Below the pieces are notes generated by a model that saw only the letters and a list, made by a program, of their open reading frames with translations, was not told the origin of the DNA and did not search any database. From an uncultured bacterium (GTDB lineage Bacteria > Acidobacteriota > HRBIN11 > JAKEFK01): a DNA stretch of 64,000 nucleotides. Within the stretch, counting starts at the first letter, position 1. Each line of letters begins with the position of its first letter. Shown piece after piece: positions 35,837 through 47,701 of this stretch. A program made the translations under genes and the position numbers. The stretch covers positions 256,001 through 320,000 of the forward strand of contig CAVZQN010000004.1 in the NCBI GenBank assembly GCA_963777505.1, written 5' to 3'.

Positions 35837-38512
35837 TTATTCGTATCGCAACGCGCTGAGAGGATCGATACGAATAGCGCGACGAGCGGGGATTACACAA
35901 GCGAGGATGGCTATAGCCAGCAAAAATGCGCTAACTGCGAAATAGGTGAATGGATCTAGTGGATGTATCTCAAATAAAAGGGTCCTAAGATAGCGTGTTA
36001 AGAGAAAGGCTCCGATAACACCCAGAACGATTCCTGCGAGTGTCAGTTGTACACCGTGACCGGTAATCAACTTTAAGATATCCGCTTTCTGCGCACCGAG
36101 CGCCATGCGAATTCCTATCTCGTTTGTACGTTTCAAAGTAATGAAACTGATCAGGCCGTAGATTCCAAGTGCCGAAAGGAACACTGCAACCGCAGCGAAA
36201 ATCAAAAGTAATATCAACTGAAATCTGCGTTGAGTCAGCGAATCGCTCACAAGCTGTTCCATGGTTACGACTCTGTAAAAGGGTAAAGTGCGGTCTACAC
36301 TCCAAACTGCTGACTTCAACGCAGGGATCAATGTGTTTGCATCGGTCAATGTTCGAACCACAAAAATAGCGGCTCCGGAAGGCGATTTGCCATAAGGGAT
36401 GAAAAATTCCGGCCTTTGTTCTTGATCGAGTCCATCATGACGCAAACTACCAACGACTCCAATTACTTCAAGCGTGGCTGGTTTTTGCCTGAATTGAGTT
36501 TGAATCTTTTTCCCGATTGCATCTTCTCCAAGATTTAGCTTACGTGCCATCGCCTCGTTAATGATTATTCTGAAAGGTCCATTTTGGTGATCAGTCTGAT
36601 TGAACATGCGTCCTTGTTTCAGCGGGATCCCCAGAAGTGAAAAATATTCATCCGTTATGATTGTAAGAAACGCTGTATGCTCCTGGCCTGCAGGTAAAGG
36701 TTGACCCTCTACTGTAATCGGATAGGACGAGTCGGAACTACTTTCAAAAAAGGGAAGTGCCGTCGTTACCCCAACTGCTTTTACACCAGGTACGTTTTTC
36801 AAACGGGAGATTGCCTCACGTGTAAAATTCAAACGCGTCTCAGGCTCATCATAATGGCCATATAGAAATACTTGCATCGCTACAACGCTTTCTCTGACAA
36901 ATCCTGGATTTACATTCAGCAAATTGATCAGACTGCGGAAAAATAATCCTGCACCAATCAACAACACAATCGCAATTGCAACCTGAGAAACTACAAGCGC
37001 GTTCCGTAATTGCTGCCGGAACCGCCCTGCTGCCATGATTGTTCCTGATCCTTCTTTTAACGAATGCTGCAAATCGAAACGCGAAGCGTGGAGGGCTGGA
37101 ATCAAGCCAAATAAAATTGCGTTTATAAATGAAAGGCCTGTCGCAAATCCAAGCACAACAGGATCCAACTTCATTGTGTCCATGCGTGGGATGTTATCTG
37201 GACCAATTGCGATCATGATTCCCATCGCCCACTTTGCAACAAGTATTCCCATTGCACAGCCGAAAATCGCAAGGATCAAATTTTCAATCATCAATTGTTG
37301 AACAATATTGAACCGGCTGGCTCCCAGCGCTAAACGAACGGCAATCTCACGCTGCCGTTCAGAGCCTCGTGCAAGTTGCAGATTTGCCAGATTCGCGCAT
37401 CCAATCAAAACGACAAGTCCAACAGCTCCCAACAATACAAGTAACGCAACTCTGACATTGCTGATGAAGTGCTCACGGATCGGAACAACATTGATTTTAA
37501 TGCCCTGATTTGTTTGTGGATGCTCTTTTGCAAGCTGTGATGCAATTGTGTTCATCGCCGATTGCGCTTGCTTCAAACTCACTCCAGGTTTCAGGCGCGC
37601 AATTACTTTTAAATACGTCGCCCTGCGTTGATACTTCCAATCCTCTTCTGTTGGTTGCGGTAGAAATGCTTCTTTTTCCGGATTGTTTAAGTAAAGCCGG
37701 AACTCGGGAGGCATGACTCCGATAATTGTTATTGGTTGATCTTCCAATGTAAGAGTGCGGCCGATAACGGAACGATCGCCGCCGAATCTGCGCTGCCATA
37801 ATCCATAGCTGAGCACAACAACATTGTTACGTCCTTCTTGATATTCTTCGGGTAAAAACGTCCGTCCATACAACGGCCTTACACCAAGTATTTCAAAGAA
37901 GCCATTAGAAACGAGGGCACTTAACCAGGTTTCAGGTTCCGCCGCGCCTGTATAGTCCAGACCCTCTGGTCGAAATGATGCGATCGTTTCGAAAACGTGC
38001 TGCCGTTCTTGCCAATCCAAAAAATTCGCTGGGGAGACGTCATCGCGTTCGATTCCATCTTTGACATTGTTTTCCCAAATTGTAACGATGCCATCCGGAT
38101 TATGGAATGGCAGCGGACGGAGAAGCACGCTGTTTACGGCGCTGAAAATCGCAGTGTTGGCGCCAATTCCAATGGCAAGTGCAAGAGTTGCTGCTATAAA
38201 AAAGCCTGGCTTTTTTAGAAGAACTCGCATTCCATATTTCCCATCGTTCAAAAGTCTCGACATCCATTCCTCTGACTTGCGAGATTTTTGAACTGGAGTA
38301 ACCGGCTTTGGTTTTTGTGGAAATATCCAATGAAGAATTTGCAACCAGTACCAGGATCGCGCGCGTCTAATGCCATTATGAGAATCAGCGCGTCTTCGAA
38401 ATTCTTCTTCAAGGTCACCCAATACGAATTCACGAATGTTTTTAGGAATGAATAATTGCAAAAACCAGCGTGCCAATTTGGGTGGCGGTAAGTCGCGACG
38501 CTTATCAGTCAT
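35837..38512 (-). CDS. ADOP-type duplicated ABC permease with permease-prefix domain
   Basis: PPKLARW...GDLEEEF prefix, LAIGIGANTAIFS, duplicated MacB/FtsX modules (REIAVRLALGA, NEIGIRMALGA). Confidence 0.93.
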   Translation of the reverse strand: MTDKRRDLPPPKLARWFLQLFIPKNIREFVLGDLEEEFRRRADSHNGIRRARSWYWLQILHWIFPQKPKPVTPVQKSRKSEEWMSRLLNDGKYGMRVLLKKPGFFIAATLALAIGIGANTAIFSAVNSVLLRPLPFHNPDGIVTIWENNVKDGIERDDVSPANFLDWQERQHVFETIASFRPEGLDYTGAAEPETWLSALVSNGFFEILGVRPLYGRTFLPEEYQEGRNNVVVLSYGLWQRRFGGDRSVIGRTLTLEDQPITIIGVMPPEFRLYLNNPEKEAFLPQPTEEDWKYQRRATYLKVIARLKPGVSLKQAQSAMNTIASQLAKEHPQTNQGIKINVVPIREHFISNVRVALLVLLGAVGLVVLIGCANLANLQLARGSERQREIAVRLALGASRFNIVQQLMIENLILAIFGCAMGILVAKWAMGIMIAIGPDNIPRMDTMKLDPVVLGFATGLSFINAILFGLIPALHASRFDLQHSLKEGSGTIMAAGRFRQQLRNALVVSQVAIAIVLLIGAGLFFRSLINLLNVNPGFVRESVVAMQVFLYGHYDEPETRLNFTREAISRLKNVPGVKAVGVTTALPFFESSSDSSYPITVEGQPLPAGQEHTAFLTIITDEYFSLLGIPLKQGRMFNQTDHQNGPFRIIINEAMARKLNLGEDAIGKKIQTQFRQKPATLEVIGVVGSLRHDGLDQEQRPEFFIPYGKSPSGAAIFVVRTLTDANTLIPALKSAVWSVDRTLPFYRVVTMEQLVSDSLTQRRFQLILLLIFAAVAVFLSALGIYGLISFITLKRTNEIGIRMALGAQKADILKLITGHGVQLTLAGIVLGVIGAFLLTRYLRTLLFEIHPLDPFTYFAVSAFLLAIAILACVIPARRAIRIDPLSALRYE

Positions 38513-38835
38513 AATTTTCCTAATTGTTTTTCAAGACCCGAAATCATTCCTTTAAACGCTCTGTAGGATTCTGCCAATGCTTCCTCGCCTAATGGTTCAA
38601 GCGAAAAATATTTCTTGCGGCGTCCGCCTCGCTGCGGTGTAGGTTCTCCAACACGCGACTGAATCAGCCCTTGCTCTTCCAGTCGATCCAGAGTTGTATA
38701 CAGCGCACCAATTGAAATTTCCCGCTCTGTGCGTTTTTCAATCTCCTCACGGATTGTTGTACCGTACGCATTTTCACGCAGACGCAATAATGCAAGCAAC
38801 ACAAGCTGCTCAAATTCACCTAACTTCTTATCCAT
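38509..38835 (-). CDS. PadR family transcriptional regulator
   Basis: LGEFEQLVLLAL, GALYTTLDRLE, RGGRRKKYF; overlaps the ADOP start. Confidence 0.93.
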   Translation of the reverse strand: MDKKLGEFEQLVLLALLRLRENAYGTTIREEIEKRTEREISIGALYTTLDRLEEQGLIQSRVGEPTPQRGGRRKKYFSLEPLGEEALAESYRAFKGMISGLEKQLGKL

Positions 38836-38858
38836 ATATTCTACAATGTAGAATATAT
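38834..38858. promoter_or_regulatory. Candidate PadR operator
   Basis: Perfect 12-bp inverted repeat atatattctaca-a-tgtagaatatat overlapping the padR start codon. Confidence 0.65.
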
Positions 38859-39102
38859 CGTTTTGTGTTGTCAAGTCCGTGTGTAAGGTGTTCAGCTTTT
38901 GAACAATTAATGTCATGGACCAGCTGACAGTTTTTGTTCGATCAACACTCGTTATGATTCGATTTGGTGGCTGTACAGTTTTTATTTCCAAAACCCGTAA
39001 GTCGTTGAGTCAAAGAGTCATACGCTGAGGAGTTGTACAGTAATAAGCCGTAACACCGAGGGTTGAGATTTGATTTATTGACGAGAATCATGCGGGTATT
39101 CT

Positions 39103-39237: not shown

Positions 39238-40221
39238 ATGTCTGAGCGCCAGGCAAGTCCATTTTGGAATAAGAATTATTGGGCCCTGATCCTAGGAGGA
39301 TCGTCTGGGTTTGGTCTGGCCACTGCAAAAAAATTAGCAAGTTGTGGATTCAATATAGTGCTGGGTCACAAAGATACTCAAGGTCGCGTTGAAAGCGAAT
39401 TGAATTCGCATTTTTCGGAAATTCGAAATCATGGAGTTGAACTGCAAACGTACAATGGCAACCTGACACAGGATGAGGAACGAGGCAGTCTCTTTGCAAT
39501 CATAGAAAAATCCGTTCCGCGCGAACATCTTTATCTTTTTCTTCATTCGATTGCAGATGGATGCTGCAAGCCATTAATCGAATCTCCCGATCCGCAAACA
39601 AAAAAGCAAGCGATTTCTGAACTCACAAAAACGCTCGTTAACCGCGGAATAGAAATCTCAGAGAAAACCCTCAGCGAAGCAATCAATTATGCCTTTCATG
39701 AAAAGGGATGCGATGCATTTGCAACATTGGCTGACAGCCAGCGTCCATTTCCACAAGAAGAGTTATCAGAATCAGAATTGGCTCGCACTTTGATGATTAT
39801 GGGTTTCGATTTCGCGAATTGGGGACGCGAACTTTTACGCAATAATTTATTTTCGAAAAAGGCCCGGTTACTTGCACTTACCTCAGAAGGCAATTCAAAA
39901 GCATGGCGTGGATATGCGGCAGTCGCTGCCGCAAAAACAGCGCTCGAAGCTCTTTGTCGATCGATGGCACTTGAGTTTGCACCATACGATCTTCGTACTT
40001 GCATCGTTCAACCTGGAATAACAGATACACCAGCCGGCAATAGCATTCCTCACTTTGATTTGATGAAGGCGCAGGCTCGCCTCCGAAATCCATTTCATCG
40101 ATTAACGACTCCGGAGGATGTTGCCAATGCGATTTATGGTTTGTGTCTGCCTCTTTTTGATTGGGTAAATGGAACAGTAATTCGAGTGGATGGTGGAGAG
40201 GCAATTTCATCTTTGAGTTAG
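39238..40221 (+). CDS. FabL/FabI-like enoyl-ACP reductase (SDR) with internal insertion
   Basis: ILGGSSGFG, LHSIA, YAAVAAAK (Y-x6-K), TDTPA, NPFHRLTTPEDVA, VDGG. Confidence 0.8.
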   Translation: MSERQASPFWNKNYWALILGGSSGFGLATAKKLASCGFNIVLGHKDTQGRVESELNSHFSEIRNHGVELQTYNGNLTQDEERGSLFAIIEKSVPREHLYLFLHSIADGCCKPLIESPDPQTKKQAISELTKTLVNRGIEISEKTLSEAINYAFHEKGCDAFATLADSQRPFPQEELSESELARTLMIMGFDFANWGRELLRNNLFSKKARLLALTSEGNSKAWRGYAAVAAAKTALEALCRSMALEFAPYDLRTCIVQPGITDTPAGNSIPHFDLMKAQARLRNPFHRLTTPEDVANAIYGLCLPLFDWVNGTVIRVDGGEAISSLS

Positions 40222-40229
40222 GAAATCAT

Positions 40230-40961
40230 ATGCCGGAACAAGACGTTGCATTAATCACTGGAGCATCAGGAGGAATCGGTCAAGCGATCGCACTCATGCT
40301 TCATAAAAAAAGTAACGGACAACTTAAAATCGGTTTGCATTACAACACCAATCTTGCAGCGGTGCAAAAACTTCAGAATCAAATTCCGCATTCATTTCTT
40401 GTTCAAGCTGATCTTAGCAATAGTCAAGCTTGTGACACCGTACTGAATGAGACAAAAAAATATGGCATCCCATACATCTTGATCAACAATGCAGGCATGA
40501 GTGTTCCTCATGAACCAGCATTGGAAATTCAAAAGTCATCTTTTGAAATGATGATGAATGTTAATTTCAAAACATCGCTTTTTTTAATGCAAAATTTTGC
40601 AAAGGAAATGATCCGTGCAGGATCGGGCATCATCATCAATATCAGTTCGGTATTGGCTCGCCATGGACTTGTAGGCAGTGCAGTCTATAGAGCGACCAAG
40701 GCAGCGCTGGAAGAAACCACCAAACAGTTTGCCTATGAACTTGGAAATAGAGGCATCCGCGTGAATGCCGTCGCTCCAGGTTTTATTGAAACCGCGATGA
40801 CGGCTTCGATTCCATTTGAAAGAAGGGAGTCGATACTTGCCAAAATCAGCAGCGGAAAATTTGGAAGCCCAGAATCGGTTGCAGATGCTGTTGGTTATCT
40901 GATTGAAAATGATTACATCAATGGCGCGGTGCTGCAGGTGGACGGAGGATTGACCCTGTGA
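40230..40961 (+). CDS. fabG: 3-oxoacyl-ACP reductase
   Basis: TGASGGIG, INNAG, NISS, YRATK, VNAVAPGFIET. Confidence 0.85.
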   Translation: MPEQDVALITGASGGIGQAIALMLHKKSNGQLKIGLHYNTNLAAVQKLQNQIPHSFLVQADLSNSQACDTVLNETKKYGIPYILINNAGMSVPHEPALEIQKSSFEMMMNVNFKTSLFLMQNFAKEMIRAGSGIIINISSVLARHGLVGSAVYRATKAALEETTKQFAYELGNRGIRVNAVAPGFIETAMTASIPFERRESILAKISSGKFGSPESVADAVGYLIENDYINGAVLQVDGGLTL

Positions 40962-42796: not shown

Positions 42797-43693
42797 ATGG
42801 GATTCGCTAGAAAAGAAGCCACGATCGAAGCAATACCTCTTGATGAATTAACGCCTTCACAGTTAGAGAAAAAAATTATCGAAGGCGTAAAAAGATATGC
42901 GACTAGAAATGAGAATTGGGCGAAGGCGACTAAAAACACTCCGTTTCTTGGCCAGATCACGGGAATGGGTATTGAATCTGCAAACTTAGTCGACATTACG
43001 ATGTCGATTGAACGGCAATTCTTAACAAGAAAAACGAAAAAAGTTCCAATCAACGCGGAAGGCACTGAATTTCGTTTAGAAGATGGCGACCTTGGTAAGC
43101 TCATGATTCTTGAAGGACAGGATACTTTTGCAGCAACTCCTGGCCTTGCAGTGAAGATGCTCATGGAGCTTGGTCACACACAAACAGATCCTTCCTATCT
43201 TGAAGACGTCATGTCTTTTGCTTATATCGTGATTGTAGGCGAAGGATATCGGCTTAATGATTCACTTCAAAAGCTTTCAATGAGAATCAACAAAGCCCCG
43301 GATGAAAATACGAAAACAGAATGGCTTCAATCTCTTTGCGAACAAATTAAGATCGCAAAAGAATACGTAAATACAATCGGCGATCCTGCGAGATTGGCTC
43401 AAACGCGGATGCGAGCCTATGAGGAAGAGCTGGATCGTTATCAGGGTCTTAATAAAGAAATTCAGGGCATCGGAGATCGAACAGTTTCCATGGATGATGC
43501 TGAACGCGAAGCATTGAAGAGCAAGCTTGCAGCATTAAAGCTTCGTTCAAATAAAAATCGGATGATTCTGAGAGTCGTGGAATCCGTTGCAAAGGATTGC
43601 GGAAAGCGTTCGCCACTTGAAGAGAATGAAGTTCAAAAAATTAAAACAAAACTTGAATCTACGTTATTGGAAATGGAAAGTTGGATGGTCTAA
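42797..43693 (+). CDS. Cryptic acyl carrier protein with insertions and ~170-aa helical C-terminal extension
   Basis: GMGIES61ANLVDITMSIERQF resembles the ACP helix-II pantetheine site; occupies the ACP slot between KS and PPTase; no other ACP in the operon. Confidence 0.65.
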   Translation: MGFARKEATIEAIPLDELTPSQLEKKIIEGVKRYATRNENWAKATKNTPFLGQITGMGIESANLVDITMSIERQFLTRKTKKVPINAEGTEFRLEDGDLGKLMILEGQDTFAATPGLAVKMLMELGHTQTDPSYLEDVMSFAYIVIVGEGYRLNDSLQKLSMRINKAPDENTKTEWLQSLCEQIKIAKEYVNTIGDPARLAQTRMRAYEEELDRYQGLNKEIQGIGDRTVSMDDAEREALKSKLAALKLRSNKNRMILRVVESVAKDCGKRSPLEENEVQKIKTKLESTLLEMESWMV

Positions 43694-46342: not shown

Positions 46343-47065
46343 ATGCAGACAATGAGGACTTTGCCAGTTGATGAAGCCATGTCCCAGCTTATGGGGTTGG
46401 CAATTTTTGGTGAGAAAGTCGCTGCTCGAACTTACACGCTAATGGCTAAGATCAAACCTGAATTCGATCAGCTTCTTCGCAAATTCTCACATATGGAAGG
46501 TCAGCATGGCACCTGGTTTATGGATGGAAGCCGAAGCAACAAGATCGAACCTGATAAAGCCTTTGCAGACCGTGAGCTTGGATACTTGATCGATCAAGTT
46601 GATGAATATTACAAGCAGCAGGATTTTAATGCGCTGGCAATTTTGCAGGGTTTTATTGTGGAAAGTCTCGCGATTTCTACATATGAACCATTTTTGGAAG
46701 TTGCACACAAATATCCTGGATCTGAAAAAGCATTCAGACAGGCCCTCGCTGATGAGCGGTATCATGTAGATTGGATCACGCGATATTTAAGGCTCGAGTT
46801 TTTTGAAAGCGAAAACAATTTCCTTCAATTGACGGAGCGTGTGAATGCTCAGGGAGTGGATTGTATCGGCGGAAGCATGATGAACATTGTCGATTGTCTG
46901 AACAGTGTTGGACTCTCAGGCGCCGATTGTTCGGGGACGATGGTCGCCGAATACACAGGATTATTGGAAAGCGTCGGAATCGACAGTGAATCCGCTACAA
47001 AAAATGTGATGGGCATCTTCATGCCCCTGATTCGTAAATACAAAGCCGGCGAAAGGACTAAATAG
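46343..47065 (+). CDS. Aldehyde-deformylating oxygenase-like ferritin-fold diiron protein
   Basis: E24, E52xxH55, E107, E138xxH141; segments GEKVAARTY, MEGQH, IEPDKAFA, LQGFIVESLAISTY, DERYH parallel cyanobacterial ADO. Confidence 0.8.
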   Translation: MQTMRTLPVDEAMSQLMGLAIFGEKVAARTYTLMAKIKPEFDQLLRKFSHMEGQHGTWFMDGSRSNKIEPDKAFADRELGYLIDQVDEYYKQQDFNALAILQGFIVESLAISTYEPFLEVAHKYPGSEKAFRQALADERYHVDWITRYLRLEFFESENNFLQLTERVNAQGVDCIGGSMMNIVDCLNSVGLSGADCSGTMVAEYTGLLESVGIDSESATKNVMGIFMPLIRKYKAGERTK

Positions 47066-47089: not shown

Positions 47090-47701
47090 ATGGAACCAAT
47101 AGAACAAACTTTTTGGTCTGTGATGAAACAGCTCGAAGTTCTGGCTGTTTCTCAGTACAAAAAATTCATCCCTGAATTAAGCGCAACGAGAAAAGAAATT
47201 TTTTTGCAGAATGTACCTTCGCAAAAAAGTTCCGCAGACGATCAGCTATCGAGTGCGGTTGAAAGGTTAGTGGAAGTTGCCACAAAAAACTCCCGGCTTG
47301 ATACGCTGCTTTTACAAGGCTTCACGCTTGAACTGATGGGACAAGCAATTTACAGGGCGATTCAAAATGTTTCGTCTGTTAACGAAAATTCTCACCTGCT
47401 TGCAGAACAAGCGTACACAGCATCGCAAGATGTACTCCAGCAAGTTCTTTCTATTCTTAGAAAAGAAAATCTTGTTGGCGATTCAGGCTTTAAGGCTTTT
47501 GTTTCAGCAACGCAAGATGTCTTCGGCGCTTTAGATTCAATGGGAACGTTGATTGACGAAACTTTCGCAGGCCAGAGCCAGTTTCGATTTGATGATATTT
47601 TAGCTGACGCTGTCGCTGAACTTCTAAAGTACGGCGCCGATCTAGGAATGGACCGCAAAAAACTTCTTCGCCAGTTGACCAGCTCCCTAATGACCGGCTG
47701 A
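47090..47701 (+). CDS. Degenerate ADO-like paralog lacking in-register ExxH ligands
   Basis: LEVLAVSQY and LLQGFTLELMGQAIY align with helices 1 and 3 of the upstream protein; LGMDRKKL tail. Confidence 0.6.
   Translation: MEPIEQTFWSVMKQLEVLAVSQYKKFIPELSATRKEIFLQNVPSQKSSADDQLSSAVERLVEVATKNSRLDTLLLQGFTLELMGQAIYRAIQNVSSVNENSHLLAEQAYTASQDVLQQVLSILRKENLVGDSGFKAFVSATQDVFGALDSMGTLIDETFAGQSQFRFDDILADAVAELLKYGADLGMDRKKLLRQLTSSLMTG

Follow-up and report, generated by a model that had tools for sequence, protein, structure and literature searches.

The stretch analyzed here, hereafter called the window, comprises 64,000 nucleotides from an uncultured acidobacterium (GTDB lineage Acidobacteriota; HRBIN11; JAKEFK01; assembly GCA_963777505.1, contig CAVZQN010000004.1, positions 256,001 to 320,000 of the forward strand). 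It encodes ADOL, a member of the aldehyde-deformylating oxygenase (ADO) family, flanked by two proteins that accompany it across genomes, the thioester reductase TR and the protein Y203. In the window these three are the last of ten same-strand genes separated by gaps of -61 to +24 nt (Table 1). The reading frame of ADOL is open, with a Shine-Dalgarno sequence (AGGAGG) 7 nt before its ATG codon. From the relatives of ADOL and its constant neighbors, we describe the trio as a candidate non-cyanobacterial form of the ADO system.

Table 1. Genes at and around the ADOL locus (window coordinates; aa, amino acids)
Feature	Position	Strand	Evidence
ADOL, ADO-family (PF11266) diiron-carboxylate protein, 240 aa	46343..47065	+	Pfam, NCBIfam, PDB, alignments
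Y203, 203 aa, no known family, directly downstream of ADOL	47090..47701	+	linkage, profile comparison
TR, stand-alone NAD(P)-dependent thioester reductase (PF07993 NAD_binding_4), 362 aa	45237..46325	+	Pfam, NCBIfam, PDB, motifs
Acyltransferase (AT; FabD-like malonyl transferase), 315 aa	44286..45233	+	PF00698 81.9 bits; TIGR00128 117.7 bits, below cut-off
4'-Phosphopantetheinyl transferase (PPTase), 202 aa	43681..44289	+	PF01648 36.6 bits
X298, 298 aa, no known family	42797..43693	+	ortholog only in L001
Beta-ketoacyl synthase (KS), 464 aa	41391..42785	+	PF00109 + PF02801
FabA/FabZ-like dehydratase (DH), 157 aa	40958..41431	+	PF07977 30.9 bits
Ketoreductase (KR; short-chain dehydrogenase/reductase [SDR], FabG-like)	40161..40961	+	PF13561 162.8 bits; true start probably ATG at 40230
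Enoyl reductase-like SDR (ER), 327 aa, first gene of the operon	39238..40221	+	PF13561 110 bits
PadR-family regulator, divergent	38509..38991	-	PF03551 51.1 bits
MacB/FtsX-type ABC permease, 891 aa	35837..38512	-	
Secreted protein, 516 aa	49124..50674	+	signal-peptide-like N terminus

A script recovers the ligands of ADOL as E24, E52, H55, E107, E138, and H141, with glutamate spacings of 28/55/31 and the ExxH motifs E52-x2-H55 and E138-x2-H141. In PMC4286721, the diiron site of ADO is defined by two E...ExxH motifs, located on helices H1/H2 and H4/H5, which provide six ligands; in the Synechococcus elongatus enzyme these are Glu32, Glu60, His63, Glu115, Glu144, and His147, as the initial annotation had correctly given them. 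The HMMER alignment of ADOL with chain 4rc5_B superimposes the six ligands column for column, bearing out the near-identical spacing that had been claimed. The third glutamate spacing is longer by two residues (31 versus 29) because the H4-H5 loop carries an insertion of that length, and a further 4 residues are inserted after H5. The alignment is colinear across the full length, and the nonligand segments that had been paired in the initial annotation (vtpdmgfa/iepdkafa, iqsliiecfaiaay/lqgfiveslaisty, and aygealenigf/eytgllesvgi) do face each other in it.

The best Pfam family of ADOL is PF11266 (Ald_deCOase), with 66 bits against a cut-off of 28 (E value of 5.7e-18, model positions 9 to 209 of 218; 65.6 bits in the scan of its own genome). 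A sequence search of the whole PDB gave 20 matches at E values of ≤2.2e-6, every one of them an ADO chain (best, 5ux2_A at 1e-12), followed by flagellins at E values of >0.2. Comparison by hhalign of the ADOL clade with seven cyanobacterial ADO-type sequences yielded a probability of 99.75% (E value of 3e-27) over 215 columns with 21% identity. By these sequence measures ADOL is a true homolog of the ADO family, as the initial annotation had it, and the likeness is far beyond chance.

Rubrerythrins combine a diiron four-helix bundle with a rubredoxin-like CxxC domain. It could therefore be argued that ADOL is a ferritin- or rubrerythrin-like protein serving iron or oxidative-stress functions, without a lipid role, and that it matches PF11266 only through the shared four-helix diiron fold. 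The sole other Pfam match above its cut-off is indeed to Rubrerythrin (PF02915; 31 bits, residues 103 to 155), and many ADOL homologs are named rubrerythrin by JGI. That match is partial, however, whereas the alignment with ADO extends over the full length and beyond the motif; the three cysteines of ADOL form no rubredoxin-type CxxC motif, so that we do not assign the protein to PF02915; and the gene is strictly linked to a thioester reductase, as described below. We regard this explanation as highly improbable.

Membership in the family does not extend to orthology. With TIGR04059, the equivalog model of ADO, ADOL scores 64.4 bits against a cut-off of 222.65, and it is 20 to 29% identical to true ADOs. 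AAR (TIGR04058), the acyl-ACP (acyl carrier protein) reductase of the AAR-ADO pathway, has no match in the genome carrying the window (95.86% complete) and exceeds the cut-off in none of five ADOL-bearing genomes, one of which has a weak match of 94.5 bits. Because the equivalog cut-off is missed and an AAR partner is lacking, ADOL is best placed, on sequence criteria, in a separate clade and is not an ortholog of cyanobacterial ADO; the earlier term "divergent ADO" thus holds for the family but not for orthology.

A homolog search of 5.8 billion proteins returned 322 matches. The best 120 of these are mostly 59 to 66% identical to ADOL (one is 95% identical) and ~240 to 250 aa long, all carry PF11266, and their database names are "rubrerythrin," "hypothetical protein," or, at NCBI, "long-chain fatty aldehyde decarbonylase." When 1.84 billion cluster representatives at 50% identity were scanned with HMMER, only 39 matched at E values of ≤1e-3, and among these the ADOL clade collapses to one representative of full-length coverage (P0081) plus fragments. 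A near-full-length relative, P0179, is 42% identical to ADOL and retains the ligands, and the near-full-length matches P0201, P0205, P0209, P0211, and P0212 are cyanobacterial-type ADOs. Two full-length relatives with 25 to 30% identity (P0190 and P0194), which carry substitutions at several of the diiron ligand positions, may be degenerate paralogs in addition to the one proposed below. P0208, a 2306-aa surface repeat protein, was rejected as a spurious match. No fused ADOL form of at least 421 aa was scored in the search, which is weak evidence.

In an alignment of 116 family members, the six ligands are present in 116/116. E78 and C174 are likewise found in all 116, G23, F59, and A110 are also invariant, and C196 (115/116) and T113 (108/116) are nearly so. 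The cysteines of ADOL are C174, C185, and C196 only; all three C-terminal cysteines of the initial annotation are therefore present, and C174 and C196 are invariant features of the family, but C185 is not (15/116, with Tyr at this position in 81 members). Both invariant cysteines stand in a D-C-x-G context, and it is a matter of speculation that they might form a redox relay or a metal site.

A quick IQ-TREE phylogeny of 44 rows (7 cyanobacterial-type ADOs and 37 ADOL-type proteins) separates ADO from ADOL with an SH-aLRT value of 100 and a branch of ~5 substitutions per site. ADOL is accordingly a tight clade (~60% identity) on a long branch from ADO in this sequence tree. Phyla are intermixed within the clade (Myxococcota requires 5 changes and Binatota 3), and the copies from Melainabacteria branch within it rather than as sister to the cyanobacterial ADOs. 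Since the tree is unrooted, the direction of descent cannot be stated. As to the suggestion that the protein bears on the origin of the enzyme, the branch length and the nested Melainabacteria copies give the ADOL clade no intermediate position. One Chloroflexota-labelled locus, L011, nests in the Melainabacteria group (L005, L016, L017, and L022) and also shares with those loci a giant GH94 glucan-synthase-like neighbor, which points to the transfer of a larger segment or to a mis-binned contig.

With each GTDB species represented by one genome, a scan gave 36 loci, consisting of 3 cyanobacterial ADOs (25 to 27% identical to ADOL) and 33 non-cyanobacterial ADOL loci (55 to 63%; L001, from the same genus as the window, 95%), all 33 from metagenome-assembled genomes (MAGs). 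According to the submitters' phylum labels, for which bin errors are possible, the ADOL loci belong to Pseudomonadota (7), Melainabacteria (6), Myxococcota (5), Vulcanimicrobiota (4), Planctomycetota (3), Binatota (3), Chloroflexota (2), Actinomycetota (1), and Armatimonadota (1), and 1 is unlabelled; nine named non-cyanobacterial phyla carry ADOL. The distribution is patchy: ADOL occurs in 2 of 201 sampled genomes of the window's own phylum, both from its own genus; among 151 genomes from the GTDB class to which G202 belongs (G202 carries the Melainabacteria-labelled locus L005), 4 have it. The 5.23-Mb genome carrying the window has a single PF11266 gene, and no photosynthetic (photosystem II-type) reaction-center protein was found in it (95.9% complete). 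Among public sequencing runs, no RNA run is listed, and three rows of soil DNA with small shares come from one study. At the three cyanobacterial loci, all from MAGs (L034:9932-19535, also L035 and L036), a bona fide ADO gene (295 bits with PF11266) is followed directly by the gene for an olefin-synthase-type megasynthase of 2881 aa, with AMP-binding, ACP, KS, AT, KR, ACP, sulfotransferase, and alpha/beta-hydrolase domains.

Linkage was assessed by tblastn of the window operon proteins against the 33 non-cyanobacterial loci. Y203 follows ADOL in 32/33, the exception (L015) ending 246 bp past ADOL, and TR is linked to ADOL in 30/33, the remaining three (L009, L015, and L025) being cut by contig ends; all misses of the trio are contig ends. 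The gene order is ADOL-Y203-TR in 26 of 30 loci. The order TR-ADOL-Y203 is found in the window, L001, and L033, and also in L029 with one gene between TR and ADOL, and in L014 TR is divergent and located upstream. All-against-all clustering of open reading frames (ORFs) revealed no other cluster common to more than 6 loci. This clustering is crude: it recovered ADOL itself in no more than 15 loci, since antisense ORFs took its place where the DNA is GC-rich, whereas tblastn finds ADOL in all. In the 28 loci where all three proteins are near complete, the distance matrices of ADOL, Y203, and TR correlate at r values of 0.77 to 0.85, which 0/2000 permutations reach, with mean identities of 65%, 40%, and 45%, respectively. 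Such correlated distances show joint inheritance or transfer, not binding.

In 28/33 loci the trio stands without a nearby carrier-protein or fatty acid synthase (FAS) gene, and the neighbors at most other loci are unrelated (GH94 glucan synthase, LytR, and GGDEF/EAL), which argues that the trio is a functional unit in itself. Either general lipid metabolism or a dedicated synthase could feed it. The ~2,900-aa neighbors at the Melainabacteria loci were considered as polyketide synthases (PKS) and rejected, as they are GH94 glucan-synthase-like and unrelated. MMPL-family lipid transporters adjoin the trio in a Myxococcota MAG (L003:4161-6464) and a Mycobacterium-labelled MAG (L023:4860-7466). 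In a Vulcanimicrobiota locus (L018:12584-16379), [2Fe-2S] and molybdopterin-binding subunits of the aldehyde-oxidase/xanthine-dehydrogenase type directly follow TR; the crude ORF clustering found no shared cluster tying these subunits to other Vulcanimicrobiota loci.

Y203 has no match in Pfam, NCBIfam, or the PDB, and its 57 homologs bear no precomputed Pfam domain and no name other than "hypothetical protein." Aligned by hhalign with the cyanobacterial ADO profile, the Y203 profile scores 39.9 (probability of 74%) over 135 columns from helix 4 to the C terminus, a score reached by 0/100 block-shuffled controls (mean of 17.5, standard deviation of 4.1, maximum of 35.2). The direct comparison of Y203 with ADOL is not significant (score of 27.0, probability of 6.5 to 9.7%, reached by 2/60 shuffles). 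By eye, two signatures are shared with ADOL: E-x2-A-x3-Y of helix 1 (E16/A19/Y23 versus E24/A27/Y31) and QG-x2-[LV]-E-x6-Y of helix 4 (Q76...E81...Y88 versus Q102...E107...Y114). Y203 retains E16 and E81 and is without an ExxH motif. It is likely, but not proven, that Y203 is a degenerate paralog with the ADO fold; this assignment relies on the match to the profile of the cyanobacterial ADOs, the stronger of the two, and not on the comparison with ADOL.

TR matches PF07993 with 80.2 bits (cut-off, 20.1) and the thioester reductase model TIGR01746 with 66.6 bits, below its cut-off of 213.35. Its motifs are intact (TGxxGxxG as TGCSGFVG at residue 10, and YxxxK as YTKTK at residue 163), and its best solved relative is the reductase domain of MxaA (4u7w, 5e-7). 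TR is thus predicted to be a reductase of the aldehyde-releasing type, and since AAR was found neither in the genome carrying the window nor, above cut-off, in the five carriers, TR would fill the role of AAR beside the ADO-family protein. The type assigned to TR also agrees with the adenylation-carrier didomain encoded next to it in L029, with the PPTase, ER, DH, KS, and AT genes around the trio in the window, L001, and L010, and with the MMPL transporters of L003 and L023.

From Pfam-level family membership, the intact ligand set, and the strict three-gene linkage across phyla, we infer the following pathway. In the genome carrying the window, the FAS-like set (ER, KR, DH, KS, AT, and PPTase) would supply an acyl chain, and TR would use NAD(P)H to reduce the fatty acyl thioester, bound to a carrier protein or to coenzyme A, to a fatty aldehyde. 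ADOL, as the putative catalytic subunit from a non-cyanobacterial branch of the ADO family, with a ferritin-like four-helix bundle and a complete diiron-carboxylate site, would then cleave the C1-C2 bond with O2 and electrons from an external donor, yielding a Cn-1 hydrocarbon and formate. Y203, a presumed degenerate paralog without a full metal site, would probably act together with ADOL, possibly in a physical pair. We give an even chance to the core of this proposal, namely, that TR makes an aldehyde and that ADOL deformylates it to a hydrocarbon. The wider proposal is put forward tentatively and rated somewhat short of even: ADOL and Y203 would constitute a two-subunit aldehyde-deformylating oxygenase and, with a TR of the carboxylic acid reductase (CAR)/FAR type, a self-contained, horizontally mobile alkane module that is present in heterotrophic bacteria of at least nine phyla and lies behind n-alkanes attributed to such bacteria.

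Several observations weigh against this proposal, including the distance of ADOL from true ADOs and its low equivalog score, the nonsignificant direct match between Y203 and ADOL, the origin of all ADOL loci from MAGs, and the properties of the pocket, reductase, and operon that are set out here and below. PMC5007808 gives 17 channel residues of S. elongatus ADO, which we mapped by hand through the 4rc5_B alignment, the C-terminal stretch of which is less certain, and counted in the 116 members. Four are identical in ADOL (Gly31 to G23, Phe67 to F59, Ala118 to A110, and Tyr122 to Y114), and eight are conservatively hydrophobic (Ile24 to L16, Ile27 to L19, Val28 to A20, Phe87 to L79, Phe117 to L/M109, Tyr125 to F117, Val184 to I182, and Met193 to L/M191). 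The other five are changed: Tyr21 to I/M13, Cys70 to A/V/G62, Phe86 to E78, Ala121 to T113, and Leu198 to C196, the last three with the family counts given above. The polar residues E78, T113, and C196 thus replace hydrophobic residues of the channel or its gate throughout the family, and C174 faces Leu176. According to PMC4286721, a hydrogen bond between Tyr21 and Tyr125 seals the channel of the S. elongatus enzyme; with I/M and Phe at these positions, the bond cannot form in ADOL. E78, T113, C174, and C196, combined with the lost gate, could indicate a different substrate or reaction. On the other hand, identity or a conservative hydrophobic exchange at 12/17 positions is in keeping with a lipid substrate, and the channel of ADOL is predicted to be lipid-like with clade-specific polar and thiol groups. 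The initial annotation had suggested a changed substrate pocket; the five changed positions of the hand mapping are consistent with this.

The same residues bear on a related explanation, in which the aldehyde made by TR is still the substrate but the outcome of the ADOL reaction is different (a Cn-1 alcohol or aldehyde, a terminal alkene, or an acid), the site being retuned by E78, T113, C174, and C196. In vitro, cyanobacterial ADO itself also yields some Cn-1 alcohol and aldehyde by-products, and invariant polar and thiol residues where S. elongatus ADO is hydrophobic, the very long branch from true ADOs, and the failed equivalog cut-off all speak for such a change. The ligand set and the 12/17 channel positions are nevertheless ADO-like, and no family outscores ADO for this protein, Rubrerythrin being the only other one above its cut-off. 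We judge this altered outcome to be somewhat unlikely.

The reductase and the operon also bear on the deformylation proposal. MxaA, the best solved relative of TR, is a four-electron reductase that carries the reduction through to the alcohol, so that TR may not let the aldehyde go. The ten genes of the window are predicted to form one type II FAS-like operon, in which no ferredoxin or reductase partner and no recognizable ACP is encoded. X298 was considered as the missing ACP on account of a short motif seen by eye and was rejected, as a scan of its own genome gave no PF00550 match at this locus even at E values of ≤10 and it has none in Pfam or the PDB. The same gene set is found in L001, and a similar set in a Myxococcales MAG (L010) is arranged in the order PPTase, ER, DH, KS, ADOL, Y203, TR, and AT. 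The order in which TR and ADOL would act cannot be read from the sequence. Both TR-ADOL-Y203 and ADOL-Y203-TR arrangements occur, so that gene order does not fix reaction order.

This leaves room for another explanation, in which ADOL first modifies a carrier-bound acyl chain by hydroxylation, desaturation, or otherwise, and TR then releases the product as an aldehyde or alcohol. The PPTase and FAS-like enzymes of the operon, the relationship of TR to a terminal release domain, and the differing gene orders are compatible with this sequence of events. So is an Alphaproteobacteria MAG (L029:4897-9344) in which a 712-aa didomain protein (AMP-binding plus PP-binding, i.e., with a carrier protein) is encoded between TR and ADOL. 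However, neither the Pfam nor the PDB searches revealed similarity to acyl-ACP desaturases, and the 28/33 loci lacking a carrier-protein or FAS gene near the trio do not fit a carrier-bound substrate. This order of action appears distinctly unlikely to us. The AMP-binding region of the L029 didomain (residues 67 to 626, ~40%) resembles the N terminus of the cyanobacterial olefin synthase of L034 to L036, and didomain and TR together suggest a split CAR-like layout.

The divergent PadR protein is a possible regulator of the operon, by inference from its position; a scan for promoters and terminators gave no signal above shuffles (12 versus 17.8 expected and 11 versus 9.3, respectively), and base composition showed no island signal, with a GC content of 0.41 to 0.48 throughout. 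The MacB/FtsX-type permease, which lies just past the PadR gene, could be an exporter. On the other side of the trio, the 516-aa secreted protein contains a GHGTHVAG motif and, by eye, is presumably subtilase-like.

The proposed deformylating system can be compared with known ones. Like the ADO of S. elongatus PCC 7942 (4RC5/4QUW), ADOL belongs to PF11266, carries the six ligands on equivalent helices over ~215 colinear residues, and conserves the equivalents of Gly31, Phe67, Ala118, and Tyr122 along with mostly hydrophobic channel positions. It differs from that enzyme by its insertions, the invariant E78/T113/C174/C196, the lost Tyr21/Tyr125 gate, its occurrence in nonphototrophs, and its obligate neighbor Y203. 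As in the AAR-ADO pathway, an acyl-thioester reductase gene stands beside an ADO-family gene, consistent with a logic of reductase, aldehyde, and diiron enzyme; in contrast to that pathway, TR is of the NAD_binding_4/SDR type and unrelated to AAR, and Y203 is a third conserved gene. TR shares fold family and motifs with CARs and with the terminal reductase domains of nonribosomal peptide synthetases and PKS (MxaA, 4U7W), and L029 has all three CAR functions as separate genes. Unlike those domains, TR (362 aa) stands alone, and its score falls well short of the cut-off for TIGR01746. Bacterial multicomponent diiron monooxygenases contain alpha/beta subunit pairs in which a paralogous subunit has lost the metal ligands. 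The ADOL-Y203 pair would be analogous in joining a catalytic gene to a ligand-poor paralog, an analogy that concerns the genes only and claims no sequence relationship.

The ADO/AAR pathway is treated as a cyanobacterial trait in PMC6361979 and PMC3903477, and the former states that a cyanobacterial genome carries either Aar/Ado or Ols "but never both," a statement to be compared with the ADO and olefin-synthase-type gene pairs of L034 to L036. Metagenome surveys of hydrocarbon genes likewise count ADO as cyanobacterial in PMC10176705, which also places such an aldehyde decarbonylase gene on a Flavobacteriaceae contig. PMC13170169 attributes alkanes to heterotrophs and describes the enzymes that make them as unidentified. 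In the literature covered, which excluded supplements and subscription journals, no description of the ADOL clade, Y203, or the trio was found. Some members already bear the automatic label "long-chain fatty aldehyde decarbonylase"; what appears to be new, judging from the genes, is that the ADO system has a distinct form outside cyanobacteria, built from three components.

The trio may represent a second bacterial hydrocarbon route in uncultured bacteria of many phyla. If alkanes are made, it would be a testable enzymatic source of bacterial n-alkanes outside cyanobacteria and a naturally occurring equivalent of the "CAR + ADO" design used in engineering, and it would provide work on slow ADO turnover with a second, differently built ADO that has a partner subunit, two invariant cysteines, and a Glu and a Thr in its channel. 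If the chemistry of ADOL is different, it would represent a new reaction in a family with one known function so far. If the two-subunit module is real, it would be the missing enzyme system behind the n-alkanes that are attributed to nonphotosynthetic bacteria in soils and sediments.

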